The notes below the pieces were generated by a model. It was not told where the DNA came from. It saw only the letters and a list, made by a program, of their open reading frames with translations, and ran no database searches. The translations under genes were made by a program, and so were the position numbers. From NCBI GenBank assembly GCA_030390025.1, contig CM059453.1:7316001-7380000 (forward strand): a stretch of 64,000 nucleotides of DNA, written 5' to 3'. Of the stretch, positions 1 through 64,000 are shown one piece after another. Source of the stretch: Squalus acanthias. Taxonomy: Eukaryota. Positions within the stretch are counted from its first letter, which is position 1. Each line of letters opens with the position of its first letter.

Positions 1-161
1 TGAGTTCAAGTGTAACATTGAAAAGAAACAATGTTCCCTCCTGCTAACGGCTATCAGGAGGAGTGATCAGGGTAAATACCAACTCAGAATCGAGATCGCT
101 TCGGCCATATATATTAATAGACCTCGGCCTCTGCATGCTGAGGTATTTCTTTCTGTTTTAG
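1..161 (+). CDS. Gene A V-set Ig exon (3' part)
   Basis: Frame from nt 2 reads EFKCNIEKKQCSLLLTAIRRSDQGKYQLRIEIASAIYINRPRPLHAEVFLSVL, donor G|GTGAGT at 161/162. Siglec hallmarks: E-strand CSL, no F-strand Cys, DxGxYxxR with Arg codon AGA at 86-88. Confidence 0.9.
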
Positions 162-1857: not shown

Positions 1858-2169
1858 AAACGCCACATATTTCAAGTTATGGCGTTCTGATCGCTGGAAA
1901 AACTGCACGACTGACCTGCTCCATCAGACACAACTGCCCGAATGGCAACCTTCAACTGAAGTGGATTAATTATAATGTGTCCCTTCCTCTTCAATGGGAT
2001 ATACAAGAAGGAGTACGAATGATCAAAGAACGTTCAGGTTCTCGGACAGTTTCATCCGTGCTGACCTTCACTCCATCATCTGCTCATCACGGGAAAATTC
2101 TGGGATGCACAATTCTAATTGATGGTATCCCAGCTCCTTCAGCACAAAATCTTATCTTGGAGATTAAAT
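1858..2169 (+). CDS. Gene A C2-set Ig domain 2
   Basis: Acceptor TTTTAATAG|, donor T|GTAAGT. LTCSIRHNCP...LKW...SVLTFTPSSAHHGKILGC matches the Siglec/MAG domain-2 pattern, including the extra Cys for the D1-D2 disulfide. Confidence 0.92.
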
Positions 2170-2755: not shown

Positions 2756-3012
2756 ATGGATTGGAAATCCCAACCGTCAACTCCTCTATAGTAGCTGTGA
2801 AAGGAAGTTCATTATTATTGTACTGCACGGCCTGGGGGAAGCCCCTGGTCAGCTTAAGTTGGGTGAAAAATGGTGAAGAGACCAGCAGGTCTTCCACTGG
2901 TGAACTAAAGCTGATATTCCACAACATTCGTTCTGAAGACGCGGTGAATATTGGTGCATAGCTGAAAATGCCCTGGGCACCTCAAAACGTTCCACACAGA
3001 ATTCAGTACATT
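2756..3012 (+). pseudogene. Gene A C2-set Ig domain 3 exon with 1-nt deletion
   Basis: Acceptor TTCAG|, donor T|GTAAGT, length 257 nt (not a multiple of 3). Reads ...LYCTAWGKPLVSLSW...IRSED, then after GC at 2941-2942 resumes as GEYWCIAENALGTSKRSTQNSVH in another frame; the uncorrected frame hits TAG at 2959-2961. Confidence 0.9.
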
Positions 3013-3937: not shown

Positions 3938-4225
3938 ATAAAGCCACAATTTTAGCAGGCCCGACATGCACCAACTCTGAAAATTGGACGAATTGTAACT
4001 GCCGGATGAGAGCCAATCCCCCGGGAAACATCACGTGGGGCCTCAATGGGAGAATCCTCACTGGGGACAGGTCAGATGTGGAAATCATCTGCTGGGCGGT
4101 GAATAGTCTCATCATGGAGAGCTCCCTGAGATTGACTCACCCAACTGGAACCGGAAACCTGATCTCATGTGTTGCAGCAAACGAGCACGTTGATTCTGTC
4201 AGTAAATACCAGCTCCACTCTAAGG
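3938..4225 (+). CDS. Gene A membrane-proximal Ig domain 4
   Basis: Acceptor TTTTTAG|, donor G|GTACGT, 288 nt. GPTC...CNCRMRANPPGNITW...ISCVAANEH resembles the membrane-proximal domain of MAG and several CD33-related Siglecs. Confidence 0.9.
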
Positions 4226-5049: not shown

Positions 5050-5143
5050 GAATATTCTCCAGGACAATTCTTCTCATCATCAGAGGAGGAGCCAGTGGGA
5101 TGTTGTTACTAATTGCAGTCGTGCTCCTGCTGAAGATACAAAG
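5050..5143 (+). CDS. Gene A transmembrane exon
   Basis: Acceptor CTTTTTTAG|, donor AG|GTATGA. In phase with exon 4: GIFSRTILLIIRGGASGMLLLIAVVLLLKIQ(R). Confidence 0.85.
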
Positions 5144-6278
5144 GTATGAGTGATTCCTAATTACATAGAATGGAGTTTTAAAGGGGATCCTGCATCAGAA
5201 ATTCCGTGTATAAAAAGCTCGTTGAAATTAATCTCCGTGAGTAGAGTGAGCACCTGCCATAATCGAAGCGGAAAGGAGGAGGGTCAATCGTCACCTGACC
5301 AGTCGCTTGCATCTCCCAGCTTCAGCTATAGACCAATATTAGTGGCTACTTGAACGAGGCTATCTGTGCATTCTTCTTGTTATATTATTGCTGTTTTTTT
5401 CCTTATGTTTAAACTGAAATTTTTGGACTTCTGATCGCTGGCGCGCTATTTGAGAGGGATTGTTTTCACCTACCGTGTAATCTAGGAAAAATGCTCAGTA
5501 TGCTCGAAGAATGAACAGAGAAAACCGTTCAGTTCGTTTCTGCTGCTGGCTTTACGGGGCACCCTCACACAAGCCTCCTTGCCATGTCAGGCTCCCAGCA
5601 TAAAACTAAACCAGAATGATATTAAGTTCTAACAATCAAGCAAGACCAGCAAACTGTAAAACAACAAACAAATAGTAAAGTTAACGTGACACATATGTTT
5701 ACAGTAGTGATTCAGTTTGTTTGGCTCCTGGATTAGAATAATATATTTCAAAATTGGGTGTGACTGATGTGCTAAAGTATGATATAAACGTTTATTTATG
5801 TTGGGCTCGTTATCTTATTCTTACCAGTGACTTAATCTATTTGGCCTGACGAGCTCTCACTGAAAGCTCTCGACAGAATCCACGCTTATAATGGATAGGC
5901 TGATAATTAGCTTCAAGGAGGTGAATGGCTCCAAGTGAATTCCAATTATATCTATTCGGTTTACAATGTGCTGCAAACCAAAATTACTCTTCAACAAATC
6001 ACAAACGATGTTTACAATGGAAATCAGTGACGGGCTCCTCAGGTAGGCGCCCTCCACAACAGATAATGATTCGGCAACAGACATAACAAGATGAGTTAGA
6101 GCACTCTTGTGAGTGGTGCTCGATTATAACCCTTCATATACCATGACATTATTAAAGATGCCAATTCCATGCTAACTAATATATAAAAGCTTCTTTCAGT
6201 GATACTGAGGTAGGATCTCAATGTGGTTATTGATGAAAATTGTATATTCCCCATTTCACACTCAAAATTTGATATATA

Positions 6279-7060
6279 ATAATGACTTGGCCTTGGGGGT
6301 ACAGGGCACAATTTCGAACTTTGCAGGTGACACCGAACGTGGAAGTGTAGTGAACAGTGAGGAAGATTGTAATAGACTTCAAAGGGACAGAGACATGCTG
6401 GTGGAATGGGTGGACACATGGCAGATGAAAGTCAACACAGAAAATTGTGAGGTGTTAGATTTGGGTAGGGAGAATGAGGAGAGACAAGACATACTAAATG
6501 GTACACTTTTAAAGGGGGTGCGGGAACAGAGAGATTTGGGGCTGCTTGTGCACGACACTTTGTAATTGGCAGGACAGGTGAACAAAGCAGTCAATAAACA
6601 TTATGGAAGCCTGGACTTTATAAATATTTGCATAGAGTACAAAAGCGAGGAAGTTGTGCTAAACCTATAGAAAACATTGTTTCGGCCCCAGCTGGAGTAT
6701 TGTGTACAATTCTGGGCACCACACTATAGGAAGGAGGTGAAGGCTTTGGAGAGGGTGCAGAAAAGATTTACTAGAATTGTTCCAGGGACGAGGGATTACA
6801 GTGATGTGGATAGGCTGGAGAAGCAGGGGCTGTTTTCCTTAGAGCAGCGAAGGCTAAGAGGAGATTTGATAGATATGATCAAAATCATGAAGGGTTTAGA
6901 TAAAGTAAATAACGATAAACTGATTACAATGCCTCAAATGTCGTTAACCAGTTGCACAGGTTTCAGGCAATTGGCAAATCAACCAAATGCGACATCAGGA
7001 CACACTTTTGTTAAGCAAAAAGTGGTTAGCATTTGAAATGCACTAACTGAAAGGGTTATG
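6279..7060 (+). mobile_element. 5'-truncated CR1-type LINE (ORF2 C-terminus)
   Basis: ISNFAGDT...WQMKVN...RPQLEYCVQFWAPHY...LEQRRLRGDLI, with stops. Confidence 0.9.
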
Positions 7061-7405
7061 GCTCTAGTAATGATAGATTGTAATGTGTTTGCACGTTGAA
7101 ACTCTTCCATCTGCGACGTAATGAGGTGTTAACATATTGAATGATCCTCCTATGTCCAAACAGCTCAATCAGCTTTCAACATGAGCAAGCAACACCGCGC
7201 CATTAACGAGCTTCATCGATAAAGTCAACAGTTCCCTTTTGAAATGTAGGCAGATGGACATTGAAAAGAATTGGAGAGCGGACGTGGTCTGTGCTAATCG
7301 GAAAACCTAAAAGACATCTGTCTCTCCTGACCTACGGACGTCCTTCACAGTATACATTAAGTAAACATTTAAGTAATATATTATCTATTATTTGTTATGT
7401 TTTAG

Positions 7406-7484
7406 GAAGAAGAGCAGTGAGACTGCATGTGTGCCGTAAACGGCTGGTGGTGCGATGGTGTACACTGGGGATCTAAACGGTGAG
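7406..7484 (+). CDS. Gene A first cytoplasmic exon with in-frame stop
   Basis: Acceptor TGTTTTAG|, donor GAG|GTAAGT. Phase-2 join gives RKKSSETACVP* (TAA 7437-7439), followed in frame by TAGGAMVYTGDLNGE. Confidence 0.7.
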
Positions 7485-7944
7485 GTAAGTTAAGCCAAGC
7501 TGGAGTGACAGTAGTAGAATGTTTGTTGTGTTTTCAACGAGCGAGTGACCCAGAACAGGCAAAAACCCAATAGATAAATGGGACTTTCAGAAATTTGGTC
7601 ACTCGTGTTGTTAAGGGAGGACTAGCCACTTAGAGTGAAGTATTTCGACGGACGCTGTGGATTGTATTTTTAAAACGTTCCTGGGATGTGGGCGTCGCTG
7701 GCAATGACAGCAATTATTGCCTATCCCTAATTGCTCTTGTAAATATGGTGTTGAGCCGCAATTTGGATGTTATTTATTTCTTGCATTAAGACCTCAAAAC
7801 GCATATCTCATGAATGAGCTCCATTTGAAAAGTTACCAGAGATTAAATAGTTAGCTTTGCTCTGGTGCAGACAGCGCACTCCCATCGTGTTCAGCTCTAA
7901 ATCTGCAATCGCTCCATATCTAAGACGAATGTCTTCCGTTACAG

Positions 7945-8092
7945 AGAGACGATCACCTGAGCCTCGCAATCGACTCAACCAGCTCAGAATGAAGAAATTG
8001 TGAACGTGACTGTCAATGTCTCACACATCCGCAATCATGAATCATATAGCCCAAATAAGAAGACCTGCGATTAGGCACCAATTAAACATAAG
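7945..8092 (+). pseudogene. Gene A fossil terminal ITIM/ITIM-like exon
   Basis: Acceptor TTACAG| at 7944. Frame from 7982 reads AQNEEIV[N]VTVNVSHIRNHESYSPNKKTCD[*]APIKHK; removing the LINE at 8093-8639 joins it to TGA at 8647-8649. Confidence 0.7.
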
Positions 8093-8639
8093 AAAAGAAG
8101 AAATAGGTGCAGGAGAAGGCCATTCGGCCCCTCGAGCCTACTGAGCCATTCAATAATATCATGGCTGATCTGATCTTGGCCTGAACTCTACTTTCCCGCT
8201 CTCTCCCCGTAACACTTGACTCCCCTGTAGTTAAAATATCTGTCTATCTCCTCCTTGAATATATTCAATGACTCCGCCTCCACAGCTCTCTGGTTTAGAG
8301 AATTCCAAAGATTCATGGCTCTCTGAGAGAAGAAAATCCTTCTCATCTCCGTCTTCAATGGGCGACCCCTTATCCTGAAACTATGCCCCCTAGTTATAGA
8401 TTCCCCCACGAGGGGAAACATCGTCTATGCATCCTACCTGTAAAGCCCCCTCAGAATCTGATATGTTTCAATAAGTTCTTCTAAACTCCATTCAGTATAG
8501 TCCCAACCTGCTCAACCTTTCCTCATAAGACAACCCCTTCATCCCAGGAATCAACCTAGTGCACCATCTCTGAACTGCCTCCAATGCAAGTATATCCCTC
8601 CTGAAATAAGGAGACCAAAACTGTAAGCAGTACTCCAGT
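8093..8639 (-). mobile_element. 5'-truncated CR1-type LINE with 7-bp target-site duplication ACATAAG
   Basis: Minus ORF 8188-8421 (TRGHSFRIRG...FFSQR...LWNSL); ACATAAG at 8086-8092 and 8640-8646. Confidence 0.9.
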
Positions 8640-9741
8640 ACATAAGTGAAAGTTAACTGTTAGCGCGGATGGTCTTGAAACAGAAAATGCCTGAACACAC
8701 CTGATGTTATGAAGTAAAAGAGACAGCATTACAATGTAATGAAGACTATGAGAATGGAGAACTTTCAGCATATAAGTGGATTTGTTTGATTTAAATTCAC
8801 AATCTCGAGTTACTTGAAATACAGTAGGGAGTTTGAATTTTTTGTGAATGTAACTGTTCAACATTTTTCTCTATTCTGTGAAAATAACCATTTTACAAAG
8901 CATTTCTAACATCGTCTTTGTCTGTTAATCTGCTGAAATGTATTGGCCCACAGTATGAACCCTCAAAACCGTGTAGCAGGTGCCAAAAAAATTACAATTA
9001 AACAGCAGAAAATACACTTTATTTTCGACTGCGCCTGAAAATCAGGTGCGAATTACAAGAGAACCATGAATATGGGCGTAGACGAGTTCATGCGAGAGTT
9101 CCAGACAATTGTCACTACTCATTCATCTGGACATATTTGATTTGTGCCCCGATTGTGAACCTGGACAGGTATTCCCAGGGCATTTCATTTAGTTTTCCGC
9201 TCAACCAGCACAACACTCGAGTTTCTGCTTGTTTCCTCTAGTTATGTCATCACAATTCAGGCAAATTGATCGAATCAGAGCTGAAGAGCAAGGAATTTTA
9301 AACATAAGTGAGCTACGCCCATGACCACTTACGCTCAATTTTTTCCTTCATCTTTTACGCAGTTTCAAGTTTTCATTTTATCCAATCAGGTTCCGCCCAC
9401 GAAACTGGCCTTGCACGCAGGTCGTAATGTGAGATTGCGCTGATTCTGAAAGGCTCATAAAATTGCGCTCATTTTCTTAGGCGCAAAGGCAGTATAAGGC
9501 ATATTTTAATAGTTTTCTCATAACAAAACAAAGTTAATTTCTAAGCCACAGTCTGCTGTACAACAATTAAACTATTAAATGTTTCAGTATCATACTTTTC
9601 GTCATTTTCTGTTATGTTAAATCAGTTTACGCACAGGTGGAGGACTGGTCACCCTTAAGAAATATGTGTATTTGCTGATTAATCCATTTAAAGCTGTCTG
9701 AATAGGACTGCGCGAGGATACATTCTTAGAAGGAATACATG

Positions 9742-48844: not shown

Positions 48845-49907
48845 TGTAAGGACATTTTTATGGATCAGGGCAGAAAAGCCCTGAGGAAAAATGACTTTGC
48901 ATGAACCCCTGCAGTCAATCCAACCAAAGAGGATGAGCCTCAACCAAAACCTCACAAACTCATTCAAAAGTGAATAATCCAAGACCCCTTTTGAAATCCT
49001 AAGGCCCAAACAGGATGCTAGAAGCCTGAATAAAACCGGAAGCCATCAGGACAAGTTTACACCAAGGTAAAATCATGAAACTTAACGAGCCCGTCAAAAC
49101 CTAAGAGAATAGAATGAACAGGCCTCAACTGAAACCCAATTCACTTCAAAACGAAACGGATTTAGTTAAGCGGTTTTGGCGCGAAAAACACAATAAGGCC
49201 ACTTCAATTTATTATAATTGAAGGCCCATCAAACAGTTACAGTTCAAGTTCAACAGAAGGCAGTTCTGCAGTTCAATCAAAAAGCCTTTTTTTCAGCAAG
49301 ATGTCAGGGCTGGAGTTACAGAGTTCAGGACAAGCAGGCAGAAGGCAGTTTCCACAGTTCTGCAAGAAGGCAGTTCCACAGCTCGGAAGAAGACAGTTTA
49401 AACAGAGGCAGAGTTGCAGCAAGAAGTTCAACAAAGAAGGCCAGCAACTTCAGAAGCAGACCGACACGCAAGAAGAAACCAGAGCAACTGCCTCAGTGAC
49501 CTTCGGACACCTCGCGGCAACAAGGGCCTTATGAAACCTTTTACTCAAAAGACTCGAAACCCTAACTCCCAACTGTCAAGGATTCGTTTTGTGAGCATTA
49601 TCTCTGGTTCTCCAGAGTCCACCCTAGCTCGAGAAGTGGGATTGGGAGGTGTGAAGTATTCTTCTAATGTTATTTCCCTCGCCTGTTCCGCGTGTTCTCC
49701 AACCTGTGTATAAGTGTTAGTGTGTTTTAAGTTTGTTACCTTTTTCTTTTAATAAAGTCAAAATTCTTTCATCAGAACCTGTTGTCTACTGCATCTTTGT
49801 TCACAACCCCTAAATAAGTCCAAGGTCTAGAACAAGGGGAGTGGGAGCGATTCCATCCACTCACTGAGTCAGAGGTGAGGCTGACCCCTACCACTCCACC
49901 CCCTACA
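48845..49907 (+). repeat. 5' LTR
   Basis: TG...CA termini, AATAAA at ~49751, collinear with 53148-54501. Confidence 0.88.
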
Positions 49908-53147: not shown

Positions 53148-54501
53148 TGTAAGTTTTCCAAAATTTGCAGATCCGCAAAACCCACGGAAAAAGAACGTTT
53201 TAACTACCCCACAGTGATAAAAATACATGTGGGCCTAACATAAGGAATTTAAGACCAAAAACCAAGTTTTGGCATTTTAAAAACATGTCTGGGCTTGTAA
53301 AGGGAGAAAAGGCTTTTAAGGAATTTGAAGTCAAAACCTCAGTTTTGGACATTTCTGAGGATCAGGGAAGAAAAGCCCTGAGGAAAAATGACATTGAATG
53401 AAACCCTGCAGTCACAGAAACAATACAGGCTGCGGGCAGGGGGTGGTGAGGCAGTGGACTGCTTTTGGGTATTGGGTCCCAGTCAAGCTGTCTGGAAGAT
53501 GTTTGCACTGCAATCCAACCAAGGCTGATGAGCCTCATCCAAAACCTCAGAAACACATTCAAAAATGAATAATACAAGACCCCTTTTGAAATCCCCAGGC
53601 CCAAACAGGATGCTAGAAGCCTGAAAACAATCGGAATCCATCAGGACAAGTTAACACCAAGTTAAAATCATAAAACTTAACGAACCTGCCAAAAACTAAG
53701 ACAATAGAATGAAAAGGCCTCAACTGAAACCTAAATCACTTCAACACGCAACCGATTTAGTAAAGCGTTTTTTTGCGAAAAACACAATAAGGCCAATTCA
53801 ATTTAGTATAATTGAAGGCCAATCAAACAGTTACAGTTCAAGTTCAACAGAAGGCAGTTCTTCAGTTCAATTAAAAAGCCTGTTTTCAGCAAGAAGTCAA
53901 GGCTGGAGTTACAGAGTTAAGGACAAGCAGGCAGAAGGCAGTTTCCACAGTTCTGCAAGAAGGCAGTTCCACAGCTCGGAAGACGACAGTTTAAACAGAG
54001 GCAGAGTTACAGCAACAAGTTCAACAAAAGTGGCCAACAACTTCACAAGCAGACCGACACGCCAGAAGAAACCAGAGCGACTGCCTCAGCGACCATCGGA
54101 CACCTCGCGGCAACAAGTGCCGTACGAAACCTTTTACTCAAAAGACTCTAAACCATAACTCTCAACTGTCAAGGATTCGTTTGGTAAGCATTATCCCTAG
54201 TTCTCCAGAGTCCAACTTAACTGGTGAAGTGGGATTGGGAGGGGTGAAGTATTCTTCGAATGCTAATCCCCTCGCCTGTACCGCGTGTTCCCCAACCTGT
54301 GTTTAAGTGTTAAGTGTGTTTTAAGTTTGTTACCTTTTTCTTTTAATAAAGCCAAAATTCTTTCATCAGATCCTGTTGTCTACTGCATCTTTGTTCACAA
54401 GCCCTAAATAAGTCCAAGGTGTAGAACCAGGGGCTTGGGAGGGATTCGAACCGCTCACTGAGTCAGAGGTGAGGCTGATCCCTACCACAAAACCCCCTAC
54501 T
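53148..54501 (+). repeat. 3' LTR
   Basis: Starts TGTAAG after the purine tract, ends CCCCCTAC(T); has ~200 bp and ~100 bp segments absent from the 5' LTR. Confidence 0.88.
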
Positions 54502-57083: not shown

Positions 57084-57376
57084 ATAAACCCAGAATAATA
57101 TCAAGTTCCAGCTGTACCAGCGCTGAGAATTAGACTGATTGTATCTGCAGCGTTTGAAGCATCCACCCCGCCCAGCAAACCTCACTTTGGTCTATAATGG
57201 GGGAATCATCACTGGGAACAGCCCACATGTCGAATGCATCTCCTGGACATTGAACAGTCACGTGGTGCAGCGTTCCCTGAGAATGGGTCACTCAACTGAA
57301 ACAGTAAAACTGATCTCATATGTTGCAGTTAACGAGCACAGTGTTACTGTTATCAAATATCAGCTCCATTCAGCAG
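57084..57376 (+). pseudogene. Orphan pseudo-exon paralogous to gene A Ig domain 4
   Basis: Acceptor TTTTTAG|ATAAA; KPRIISSSSCTSAEN*TDCICSV*, a frameshift, then PANLTL...ISYVAVNEH...KYQLHSA. Donor changed from GT to AT; downstream intron resembles 4230-4450. Confidence 0.88.
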
Positions 57377-61481: not shown

Positions 61482-61524
61482 ATGAGCACTTGCATGTTGT
61501 TTTCTCTCATGATATTGACCGAAG
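61482..61524 (+). CDS. Siglec-like gene B signal-peptide exon
   Basis: GCCATG context; MSTCMLFSLMILTE then G|GTACAT, phase 1, in frame with the exon at 62148. Confidence 0.8.
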
Positions 61525-62147
61525 GTACATTTCTTACGTTTTTACTAATTTCTAAAACAGCTGATTTATATCTGGTGGTAAAAGAACAGGACAGTACCTA
61601 ATATAATTGTTTTTAATTCATTGTAGCAATGGTGAGTTGGTATTCCATAAGTGTTTTATTGCATGTGATTGCCTATTCAAACAATATTTAAATATATGGC
61701 TTTTCAAGTTATATTTAATAAGAATTGTAATGCACATTTAATAGCATGCTAATTCATATTGATTGCGTAATTCAAAGGAGAATCAATGGAAGTGTAAAGT
61801 TCATTCTAATTAATATTAATTTTAATTTATATTTAACGAAGATTTTATAGGGCATTCACTTGCTTCTTGGTGGATATGTGTTCGATTTTTAGATGAGTAT
61901 TAAATATGCATATTATTTGTTCATAAATCTACTATCAAATATATATTCCAATGGACATGTCAATAGTTTTTGCGATTGGTATTTAGTCAGTATTTTACTT
62001 GATTTTGAATAGTATTTAACTGATATTTAAATTGCTAATGTGCTGGGAGGTTTTTAATCAATCAACAAGCAATTTTATGGATGCTTAAGCAATTGCAATG
62101 CTTTTTGAATGGATACTTAAAGGCCGTCTAATCTTTTATTTTCTCAG

Positions 62148-62528
62148 CCTTTTGTAGTGTTCAATGTTCTGTTGTGATGCCAAAAGTTGTGTCGGCGGTG
62201 TTGGGTTCTTGTGCAGAGATCCCGTGTAAATTTGATAACATAGGCTACATCGCCAACCTGAACGGGCGGTGGATAAAGAGGAATCCTGGTCCTGGAACAC
62301 ACAATGACTCCATTATCTATGATTCGAATGATCCATTCAGGCAGCATTATAATTTTAGTGGCAGAGCTGAGTTCAAGGGCAACCTTGAAAAAAGACAATG
62401 CTCCCTCCTGATAAAGGATATCCGAAAGAGTGATGAGGGTGCATATCAGTTCATCACAGCCATCACCTCGGGCAGAAATTCTATAACACATCGCATTGCC
62501 CGTTCCGAAGTCTTTCTTTCTGTTTTAG
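62148..62528 (+). CDS. Siglec-like gene B V-set Ig exon
   Basis: Acceptor TTTTCTCAG|, donor G|GTGAGT, 381 nt open. MPKVVSAVLGSCAEIPCKF...W...GRAEFKGNLEKRQCSLLIKDIRKSDEGAYQFI has the Siglec Cys pattern. Confidence 0.93.
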
Positions 62529-62587
62529 GTGAGTTTGCCATTTATTGTTCTTGTACATTTTTATTCCATTGTTTTAGTATGAATTAA

Positions 62588-63094
62588 CATAGAGTCACAG
62601 AGTTATAACGGCACAGAGGGAGGTTATTCGGAACATCGAGTGCGTGCCGGGTCTTTTTAGAGCAATCGAGTCAGTCCCATTTCCCCGCTCTATCCCCGTA
62701 GCACTGCAAGTTTATTTCCCTCAAGTGCCTATCCAGTCTCCCCTTGAAAACATTGAGTGTCTCCGCTTCCACCACTTCCGTCGGCAGCAAGTTCCAGGAC
62801 CTCACCACTCGCTGCGTTACAACGTTTTTACTCACATTCCCCCTGTATCTCTTGCCCAAAACCTGAATACTGTTTCCTGGTCCTGGTACCATCAACTAGT
62901 AGTAACAGCCTTTCCCCGTCTAGCCTATCCAAACCCGTCATAATATTGTACATCTCTATCAAATCACCCCTCAACCTCCTTTGCTCTAATGAAAACTAAT
63001 CCAGATTCTCTAAGCTGTCCTGTTAGTTAAGATCCCCCATCTGCCGGAACCATTCTGGTAAATCTCCTCTGCACCCTCTCCAGGGCCTTCACAT
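62588..63094 (-). mobile_element. CR1-type 3' fragment specific to gene B intron
   Basis: Minus ORF 62671-62895 (TQRVVRSWNLLP); absent at the homologous gene A position near nt 220. Confidence 0.88.
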
Positions 63095-64000
63095 CCTATT
63101 TGTAAAGTGGGCAATTTTTTTGATTTCTCTGGCCGAACATTAAGGTTAGTGGAAACATAGCGGACAGGGGTACTGATAAGAGACGCAGGCATTCATATAT
63201 TAAACACAGAGGTATATAGAAATTACAGCAGTAAATCAGGCCGTTCGGCACAGACAGCCCGTGTTGCTGTTTGTACTTCACATGAGCAACACTCCGAATG
63301 GCATGTGCCTGCTCAGTTCCCACATCTCTTTATTGCAATTCCCTTCCAACACCTGTCGAGCCTATTCTGAAATGTCCACATGAGGATACATTTACTAAGT
63401 GTTGACTGAACCTAAAGCTGACATTGTTGATCGTACTTATAATACATAAACCAGCAGCTCATTAGTTACAATGAAATGAAAGGTAATGGAACTAGGTTGG
63501 TTGCTAGAATGGGTGACTTGTCTGGAATGACAGTTTTAACCAGGGCGGCCATTTCAAATTCTATCTCAGTCTGCTTCTTTCTCCTCTGTCCAGATGCTTC
63601 AAAAGTTTAAGCACTTCTGTCAAATCATCCCAAAATCTCTTTTCGCCTAATAAAATCTGGCTCAATTTTTAAATAATTGTACTTCATCATACCAGACAGA
63701 AACTACGCGAATCAACCCTGTAGCCTTCCTATAGACTGGCGCCCAATACCCGTATTCTTACTCCAAATGCGAACTAACTACTGTTCTCTTTTGAATCGCC
63801 ACTAATCTCGAATTTATATTTCAGAACTCCTGCCATTAAACTCAGAGCTCCAGAAACATTTTCATACACTTTTACACTGGAGGTGCTGCTTTTACTGTCT
63901 TATGAAGCTGACCCCAAATTCCTCTGCTCTTCCACATCTCCCAGCTTCCTACGGTCCAAATTAACATCTACCACCTCATATTTTCTGATCTTGAATTATA
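63095..64000 (+). repeat. Paralogous copy of gene A intron (~221-1135)
   Basis: Collinear, roughly 85-90% identical by eye over 63210-63500 versus 335-620. Confidence 0.92.

Follow-up and report, generated by a model that had tools for sequence, protein, structure and literature searches.

A Candidate Activating Membrane and Tail Module in a Cluster of Siglec-like Genes of the Shark Squalus acanthias

Introduction

Has a Siglec-like receptor gene of the shark Squalus acanthias changed from an inhibitory to an activating form? The question is raised by g1, a multi-exon gene on the + strand that is already under way at the first position of a 64,000-nt stretch of genomic DNA (assembly GCA_030390025.1, contig CM059453.1, positions 7,316,001–7,380,000; the window). 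A preliminary description, made from the letters alone, had reported an arginine codon within the transmembrane (TM) segment of this gene, a TAA that trims the tail to RKKSSETACVP, a decayed downstream exon with two former ITIMs (immunoreceptor tyrosine-based inhibitory motifs), and a frameshift, and had proposed that the gene belongs to a Siglec-like shark cluster, descends from an ITIM-bearing ancestor, and was itself converted to an activating architecture. Every one of these features is present (Table 1), and V-domain matches and paralogs bear out the family assignment and the ancestry. The signature of conversion also stands, but its location does not: it belongs to the ancestor of 11 gene copies. 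Paired activating and inhibitory receptors are known as a kind (PMC13358205, PMC2213150), and a shark Siglec-like instance is apparently undescribed in the sections of the literature covered here, to which all citations below refer. We estimate at about 0.6 the probability that these copies carry a young activating module within such an apparently undescribed shark paired-receptor cluster.

Results

When the genome was searched for the TM exon, 39 matches came up, of which 36 lie on the contig that contains the window; the fourth immunoglobulin (Ig) exon gave 83 matches, which added four TM-bearing copies (g40–g43) and a second subfamily, B (24 copies at 51–58% identity). Subfamily A comprises the 43 copies whose exons were extracted, with g1 as the window gene; two further close fourth-exon matches, with no TM exon in the surrounding DNA retrieved, were left uncounted. 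The genome contains at least 43 subfamily-A copies plus the 24 subfamily-B copies.

The 11 copies g1–g11 all have AGA at the TM codon and form one group both in a tree of the TM exon plus flanks (support 100/100) and in a tree of the tail (100/99), where g18 and g19 are their sister. We refer to them as the Arg clade; near-identical pairs, such as g7/g10, g8/g9, and (outside the clade) g26/g27, are perhaps haplotypes, and the 11 copies may represent about eight lineages. Their first tail exon is shorter by 9 nt in ten copies and by 20 nt in g11, and their last exon lacks 17 nt in all 11 (g6 loses more), which leaves 148 coding nt in g1 compared with 165 ancestrally. The ancestral tail had three tyrosine motifs, one of them inside the exon that the TAA truncates in g1, and the 17-nt deletion shifts the frame into a stop ahead of both distal motifs. 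The former stop codon is occupied by a repeat, whose 5' junction is present in 11/11 copies and whose 3' junction was found in ten. The predicted tails of the Arg clade are 10–42 residues long, against mostly 85 in the ITIM copies, and a canonical ITIM is kept in 0/11 of them against 24 of the 25 copies that have no Arg at the TM column or the preceding one (a count that includes g38 and g39, whose Arg differs from that of the clade). In the Arg clade, TM Arg was inherited together with ITIM loss, and it is not private to a dead copy. The 11 copies descend from one event, so this contrast is one observation and not eleven, and for the same reason we discarded the Fisher p value of 2e-8 as evidence. 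The stem changes of the clade include Thr to Leu, and the TM segment apart from the Arg is slightly more hydrophobic than in other copies (2.97 versus 2.79, with overlapping ranges). We conclude that an ITIM-bearing ancestor gave rise to the module a single time.

The TAA is not the change that converted the tail. It occurs only in g1, g7, and g10, and eight of the 11 copies read AAA at that site (g11, exceptionally, after an earlier frameshift); the lesion that all 11 have in common is the loss of 17 nt from the last exon. Informative sites in g1 resemble g2 up to about position 5,500 and g7 from about position 6,000, and g1 therefore acquired its TAA by recombination. The gene is a double mosaic, later given the TAA and frameshifted in its third Ig exon (C2). 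The repeat was also rejected as the event that destroyed the ITIMs, because its position is the old stop codon, past both motifs. We take this repeat to be the 3' end of a long interspersed nuclear element.

Table 1. Positions of the exons and lesions of g1 and of related loci (window coordinates unless a locus is named; ITIM-copy counterparts of the last-exon remnants are IVYATV and CEYAAI/CEYAPI)
Feature	Position	Strand	Remarks
g1 leader exon	681 nt farther upstream of the V exon, outside the window		Open
V-set exon, 3' part	1–161	+	Whole exon 387 nt, starting 225 nt ahead of the window; start open
AGA at the position of the sialic-acid-binding arginine of sialoadhesin	86–88	+	By alignment
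Second Ig exon (C1)	1858–2169	+	Open
Third Ig exon (C2)	2756–3012	+	1-nt deletion near 2941, also in g2 and g4; phase 1-1, so in-frame skipping possible
Fourth Ig exon (C3)	3938–4225	+	Open
TM exon	5050–5143	+	AG..GT bounded; translation IFSRTILLIIRGGASGMLLLIAVVLLLKIQ
Gly-to-Arg codon AGA	5082–5084	+	Fixed in 11/11 clade copies
Approximate recombination breakpoint	5500–6000	.	Upstream g2-like, downstream g7-like (informative sites, trees)
First tail exon	7406–7484	+	79 nt (ITIM copies: 88); RKKSSETACVP, then TAA at 7437–7439
Last exon	7945–8092	+	Clade-wide 17-nt deletion; new-frame stop 7990–7992; remnants IVNVTV (7997–8014) and CD*API (8066–8083)
Repeat inserted at the former stop codon	8093–8640	−	About 550 nt; target site duplicated
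Second copy of the target site, with the ancestral TGA stop displaced	8641–8649	+	TGA at 8647–8649
Subfamily B	G000:C30:6.89–7.16 Mb and 7.70–8.02 Mb (L128–L151)		Arg/ITIM-less and ITIM forms
FcR-gamma-like TM exon	L166:1504–1593, G000:C1222	−	
Zeta-like TM exon	L165, G000:C5		

The ectodomains tell a different history from the TM and tail regions. Trees built separately from V, C1, and C3 disperse the Arg-clade copies among ITIM copies, and monophyly of the 11 is rejected by the approximately unbiased test (p-AU 3e-58 for V, 1e-46 for C1, and 0.013 for C3). Arg and non-Arg copies are interleaved along the contig, and ITIM-bearing partners with near-identical ectodomains are present: g5 matches its neighbor g14 at 95.8% identity in V and 96.5% in C1, and g9 matches g38 at 99.5% and 99.0%. 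For the V exon of g1 itself, none of the 41 V exons examined provides a close partner of the ITIM type. These results indicate that recombination or conversion attached the module to several different ectodomains, which are 95–99% identical to those of ITIM copies. KIR and Ly49 genes are described as having undergone a single functional shift that then spread through recombination (Abi-Rached and Parham, 2005; PMC2213150), and the exchange in the Arg clade shows the same pattern.

Subfamily B contains a parallel module. A TM exon was obtained from 23 of its 24 copies, of which 12 are SFWRIVMPIRAAVAV-like with Arg and 11 are TFPWEIVISVLAAAA-like without it, and the Arg lies at the same or the adjacent aligned column as that of subfamily A. 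The first tail exon was extracted from nine of the 12 Arg copies and, in the seven that were fully parsed, is 86 nt long and ends in a stop; the remnants shown of the decayed last exon all have stops ahead of the ITIM. A canonical motif is kept in 10 of the 11 non-Arg B copies. Two B Arg copies were examined along their ectodomains: one (minus strand of G000:C30, near 6.91 Mb) is open in V, C1, C2, C3, and TM, and its V domain closely resembles that of ITIM copies; the other has a stop in C1. The B Arg TM exons group with gene models of the basking shark (XP_078392811.1) and the smooth-hound (XP_078093181.1) at 100/95, in a tree built from a short alignment with long branches, and share with them a one-residue deletion, a PIR motif, and an SHR end. 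This grouping argues that the Arg-type TM segment has been kept across distant sharks. The subfamily-A Arg is a separate and younger gain than the B module, and the independent repetition of Arg together with ITIM loss supports the activating reading. In the ITIM copies of subfamily B, the first tail exon is 49 nt long and its tyrosine motif has been lost.

We also assessed how much of the Arg clade could encode protein. The leader and C1 are open in 11/11 copies and V in 9/11, and g5, the sole intact copy, is open in leader, V, C1, C2, C3, and TM. Ectodomain lesions are confined to C2 in seven copies (g1, g2, g4, and g7–g10), and g3, g6, and g11 are damaged elsewhere. Across 40 copies (g36, g42, and g43 were excluded as decayed), C2 has 11 distinct lesions against four in C1 and C3 together (p=0.0007, or 0.0008 with V added). 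C2 is missing altogether from g18 and g19 and from several annotated homologs of other sharks, and skipping it preserves the reading frame. We hypothesize that C2 may be skipped in the C2-damaged copies; two findings weigh against this, namely that the C2 splice sites of g1 are intact and that in non-Arg copies C2 has the lowest ratio of nonsynonymous to synonymous change (dN/dS, by parsimony counting) of any exon, 0.59. A protein from g1 would depend on such skipping, which we think rather unlikely, and g1 itself may be dead.

The Arg-clade TM exon is free of lesions in all 11 copies, whereas the rates in its flanks would predict about 3.7 (P=0.024), a weak result for which more cautious rates give a lower expectation. 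The exon is also less diverged than its flanks (0.15 versus 0.31–0.41 per site); its 94 sites show 14 changes, and the difference from the downstream flank has p=0.003.

The structural kinship to Siglecs was assessed with the V domain of g2, which is near-identical to that of g1. This domain scores above cut-off for Pfam V-set and Ig_CD22, and among solved structures its top match is sialoadhesin (E=4e-11), with MAG at 2e-7. The exon order of V-set, C1–C3, TM, and tail fits the structural Siglec layout. Siglecs have B- and E-strand cysteines rather than the B–F pair, plus an extra N-terminal cysteine, and the three cysteines of the shark V domain line up with those of sialoadhesin, with none after the D-x-G-x-Y motif. 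The closest named homologs are shark proteins annotated Siglec-like or MAG-like, and RefSeq names vary among Siglec-5/8/11/12/13/14, MAG-like, and hemicentin-like. The F-strand Arg (g1 codon 86–88) is found only in g1, g2, and g4 (3/41 subfamily-A V exons) and is missing from the other 38, intact g5 included; it is possibly a regain on an Arg-clade lineage. By structure the family is Siglec-like, with sialic-acid binding a putative function. Subfamily-A V exons that lack this Arg mostly have AGC or ATC there, and the subfamily-B V domains examined have Arg, Lys, or Ile at the sialic-acid-binding position.

An activating receptor of this type would need an adaptor. The genome contains two TM exons of the zeta/FcR-gamma family with Cys and Asp (Table 1), one of which is FcR-gamma-like (E=1e-11, compared with 3e-9 for zeta). 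Exons with an ITAM (immunoreceptor tyrosine-based activation motif) were not found for the FcR-gamma-like gene in the 25.6 kb up to the contig end; one partial ITAM motif lies near the zeta-like exon, and a DAP10 profile gave no match. A single ITAM match downstream in the window, at 16928, was rejected as a chance match inside repeat-like sequence. A complex prediction that combined the g1 TM segment with a pair of FcR-gamma-like TM segments scored 0.04, was run without controls, and gives no verdict. Receptors that use FcR-gamma typically have their Arg close to the helix's outer end, and because the shark Arg sits there, FcR-gamma would be favored over DAP12 as the adaptor. A 2014 survey did not find FcR-gamma in sharks, in the sections covered (PMC4016189).

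Discussion

The sequence comparisons suggest that the Arg-clade copies are likely activating partners of their ITIM-bearing paralogs. As the shared lesions show, Gly changed to Arg in the TM segment of an ITIM-bearing ancestor, the first tail exon underwent the 9-nt deletion and motif decay, the last exon underwent the 17-nt frameshifting deletion, and the repeat inserted where the stop codon had been; the module then multiplied and was combined with different ectodomains through recombination or conversion. In the activation mechanism that we propose, the products would be expressed at the cell surface, where the TM Arg would pair with an adaptor Asp and an ITAM adaptor such as FcR-gamma would activate the cell. 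Pathogens that exploit the inhibitory copies could select for such activating partners.

Several findings weigh against this proposal, and some of them speak for neutral decay, in which a dead ancestral copy drifted to Arg, acquired the deletions and the repeat, and was spread by duplication and conversion within the cluster. Some ectodomain lesion is present in 10/11 Arg-clade copies, and the C2 frameshift of g1 is not a sequencing slip, because g2 and g4 have the same deletion. The Arg-clade dN/dS is 0.6–1.4 across exons and nowhere different from 1, a value that the preliminary description had named as speaking against its proposal; ITIM copies, however, also have a ratio of about 1 in V, C1, and the tail, and since these intact copies behave likewise, the ratio does not discriminate. 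The slowness of the TM exon is not protein-level constraint, because its synonymous sites are equally slow (three changes against 8.3 expected), and it could reflect conversion or chance. The Arg TM exons of subfamily B have three lesions where 2.5 are expected under neutrality. Three RNA runs labeled as this species gave no coverage of TM or tail exons of either subfamily; what they yielded was repeats and a pair of thinly covered pieces with about 85% similarity to the C1 exon, and they are uninformative. GGA to AGA is a single transition, and the Gly codon of the closest non-Arg copy, g13, lies in a CpG context; Arg was also gained in the damaged copies g20, g36, g42, and g43, and about one-third of non-Arg copies are damaged as well. 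Decay nevertheless accounts poorly for a TM exon that is lesion-free in 11 copies, for leader, C1, and V exons that are almost all open, for the intactness of g5, for lesions concentrated in one skippable exon, and for the same coupling of Arg with ITIM loss in subfamily B, where the membrane segment has been kept in three shark lineages. We consider neutral decay unlikely.

It is more improbable still that the Arg-clade products function without signaling, as membrane-bound decoys or as adhesion or uptake receptors in which the Arg is tolerated close to the outer membrane face and recruits nothing. This explanation draws on the position and context of the residue. The Arg comes as early as residue six in the hydrophobic stretch; it stands in LIIR in subfamily A and in MPIR in subfamily B, with neither NxxR nor DYT, which also counts against an activating role. 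In FcR-gamma-associating receptors of the leukocyte receptor complex (LRC), the Arg lies within NxxR and is preceded by DYT (PMC6557307). An Arg near the same position also occurs in annotated long-tailed homologs of the horn shark and the smooth-hound (P0011 and P0014) and in g20 and g28, which keep ITIMs. A degenerate MVYTEV/MVYTGV motif persists in 5/11 Arg-clade copies, which weighs against the activating reading. Tolerance alone would leave unexplained why two independent modules couple an Arg at the same or the adjacent column with ITIM loss and why non-Arg copies without a canonical motif are rare (1/25 in subfamily A and 1/11 in subfamily B), with neither expanded.

The ITIM-keeping copies with Arg are a further difficulty for the activating reading, and the expectation in the preliminary description that such copies would speak against it was borne out in part. 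Three copies with one or two canonical ITIMs have Arg at the same column: g20 (AGA), g21 (CGA), and g28 (CGA). Four others, mostly damaged, have it one column earlier (g29, g36, g42, and g43). We regard g20, g21, and g28 as a second Arg gain and as candidate dual or intermediate receptors. The recurrence of Arg can be read as marking intermediates like those of rat Ly49 (PMC2213150) or as the mark of an easily drifting codon. These three copies lie on contig G000:C30 at 6841933 (g20), 206070 (g21), and 246175 (g28). Two other copies there, g38 (7470350) and g39 (6186330), have a TM exon that is 6 nt shorter and Glu plus Arg in the helix, and keep their ITIMs. Homologs of other sharks (P0020, P0001, and P0014) show a TM Lys with a short tail in the zebra shark and TM Arg at other positions in the cloudy catshark and smooth-hound, and represent possible further independent gains of TM charge.

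A bolder version of the activating proposal would make the cluster a KIR-style paired-receptor system of about 70 genes in which an activating module was invented twice at one membrane position, first before the divergence of the major shark lineages and again recently. The young module would have spread over many ectodomains, and the g1 lineage, with a regained sialic-acid Arg and a dropped third Ig domain, would be an activating sialic-acid sensor that signals through shark FcR-gamma. We hold this reading as a whole to be unlikely.

Activating KIR and Ly49 receptors resemble the proposed shark module in several respects: an inhibitory receptor became activating through a few changes, a charged TM residue and ITIM loss among them, the signaling domain, unlike the ligand domains, is monophyletic, the spread was driven mainly by recombination, dual receptors with Arg or Lys plus ITIM exist as intermediates, and activating copies are short lived (PMC2213150). 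Unlike KIR and Ly49, the shark cluster has a Siglec-type V-set ectodomain, uses Arg and not Lys, lost its ITIMs through a frameshifting deletion, and contains two modules of very different age. The Siglec-5/-14 and Siglec-11/-16 pairs share with it a Siglec-type V domain, near-identical ectodomains kept so by conversion, and the opposition of ITIM to short tail (PMC13358205, PMC5701461), and in Siglec-11/-16 the converted exons are under relaxed constraint and dead activating alleles are frequent (PMC5701461). The shark family differs in numbering tens of genes and not two pairs, and the arginine for sialic acid is missing from most V domains of subfamily A. Human activating Siglecs, in the accounts covered, use DAP12, whereas FcR-gamma would be favored for the shark copies. 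In their short tail and probable FcR-gamma adaptor the latter are like LILRA, FcalphaRI, GPVI, OSCAR, and NCR1 (PMC6557307), from which they differ in that the subfamily-A Arg arose by point mutation from an inhibitory TM segment and is not an old TM type. Clearnose skate MDIRs are likewise a multigene family of activating and inhibitory Ig receptors in a cartilaginous fish (via PMC3031540); going by their descriptions there, they resemble CD300, TREM, and pIgR and are set apart from the shark V domain, which resembles sialoadhesin, MAG, and Ig_CD22. In NxxR-type LRC receptors the arginine lies toward the helix's outer end, as it does in the shark copies.

We found no account of shark Siglec-like paired receptors in the literature covered, which excludes subscription papers and supplements. 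The sections covered of the whale shark genome paper name Siglecs once in passing (PMC8455134), and a teleost study describes fish genomes as lacking ITIM-bearing CD33-related Siglecs (PMC7226832). This genome, which has dozens of Siglec-like genes with ITIMs and a membrane exon of FcR-gamma type, stands in contrast to that study and to the 2014 survey, as far as their covered sections go. If the activating reading is correct, the inhibitory-to-activating switch of primate KIR, rodent Ly49, and primate Siglecs has also occurred repeatedly in a large Siglec-like family of cartilaginous fish. Because old and young stages coexist in one cluster with half-way ones that combine Arg and ITIM, the order of steps would be testable on natural genes.

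Other Features of the Locus

Many near-identical gene pairs link the 6.2–6.9 Mb and 7.2–7.7 Mb regions of G000:C30, and these paired blocks may be a recent segmental duplication or unmerged haplotypes. A remoter family member at G000:C30:6137748 (L152) has 38% identity in the fourth Ig exon and a TM segment with an uncharged core. Within the window, a tandem array of four to five repeat-rich units of about 5.1 kb, about 92% identical, occupies 24361–46701. Direct repeats of about 990 nt at 48916–49906 and 53511–54500, 90% identical, enclose a GC-rich interior, and the pair looks like an element bounded by long terminal repeats. A decayed fragment of a fourth Ig exon lies at 57084–57371, and 61482–64000 belongs to the gene that follows, the ITIM-type copy g26, with its leader, its V exon (62148–62528), and an intron.

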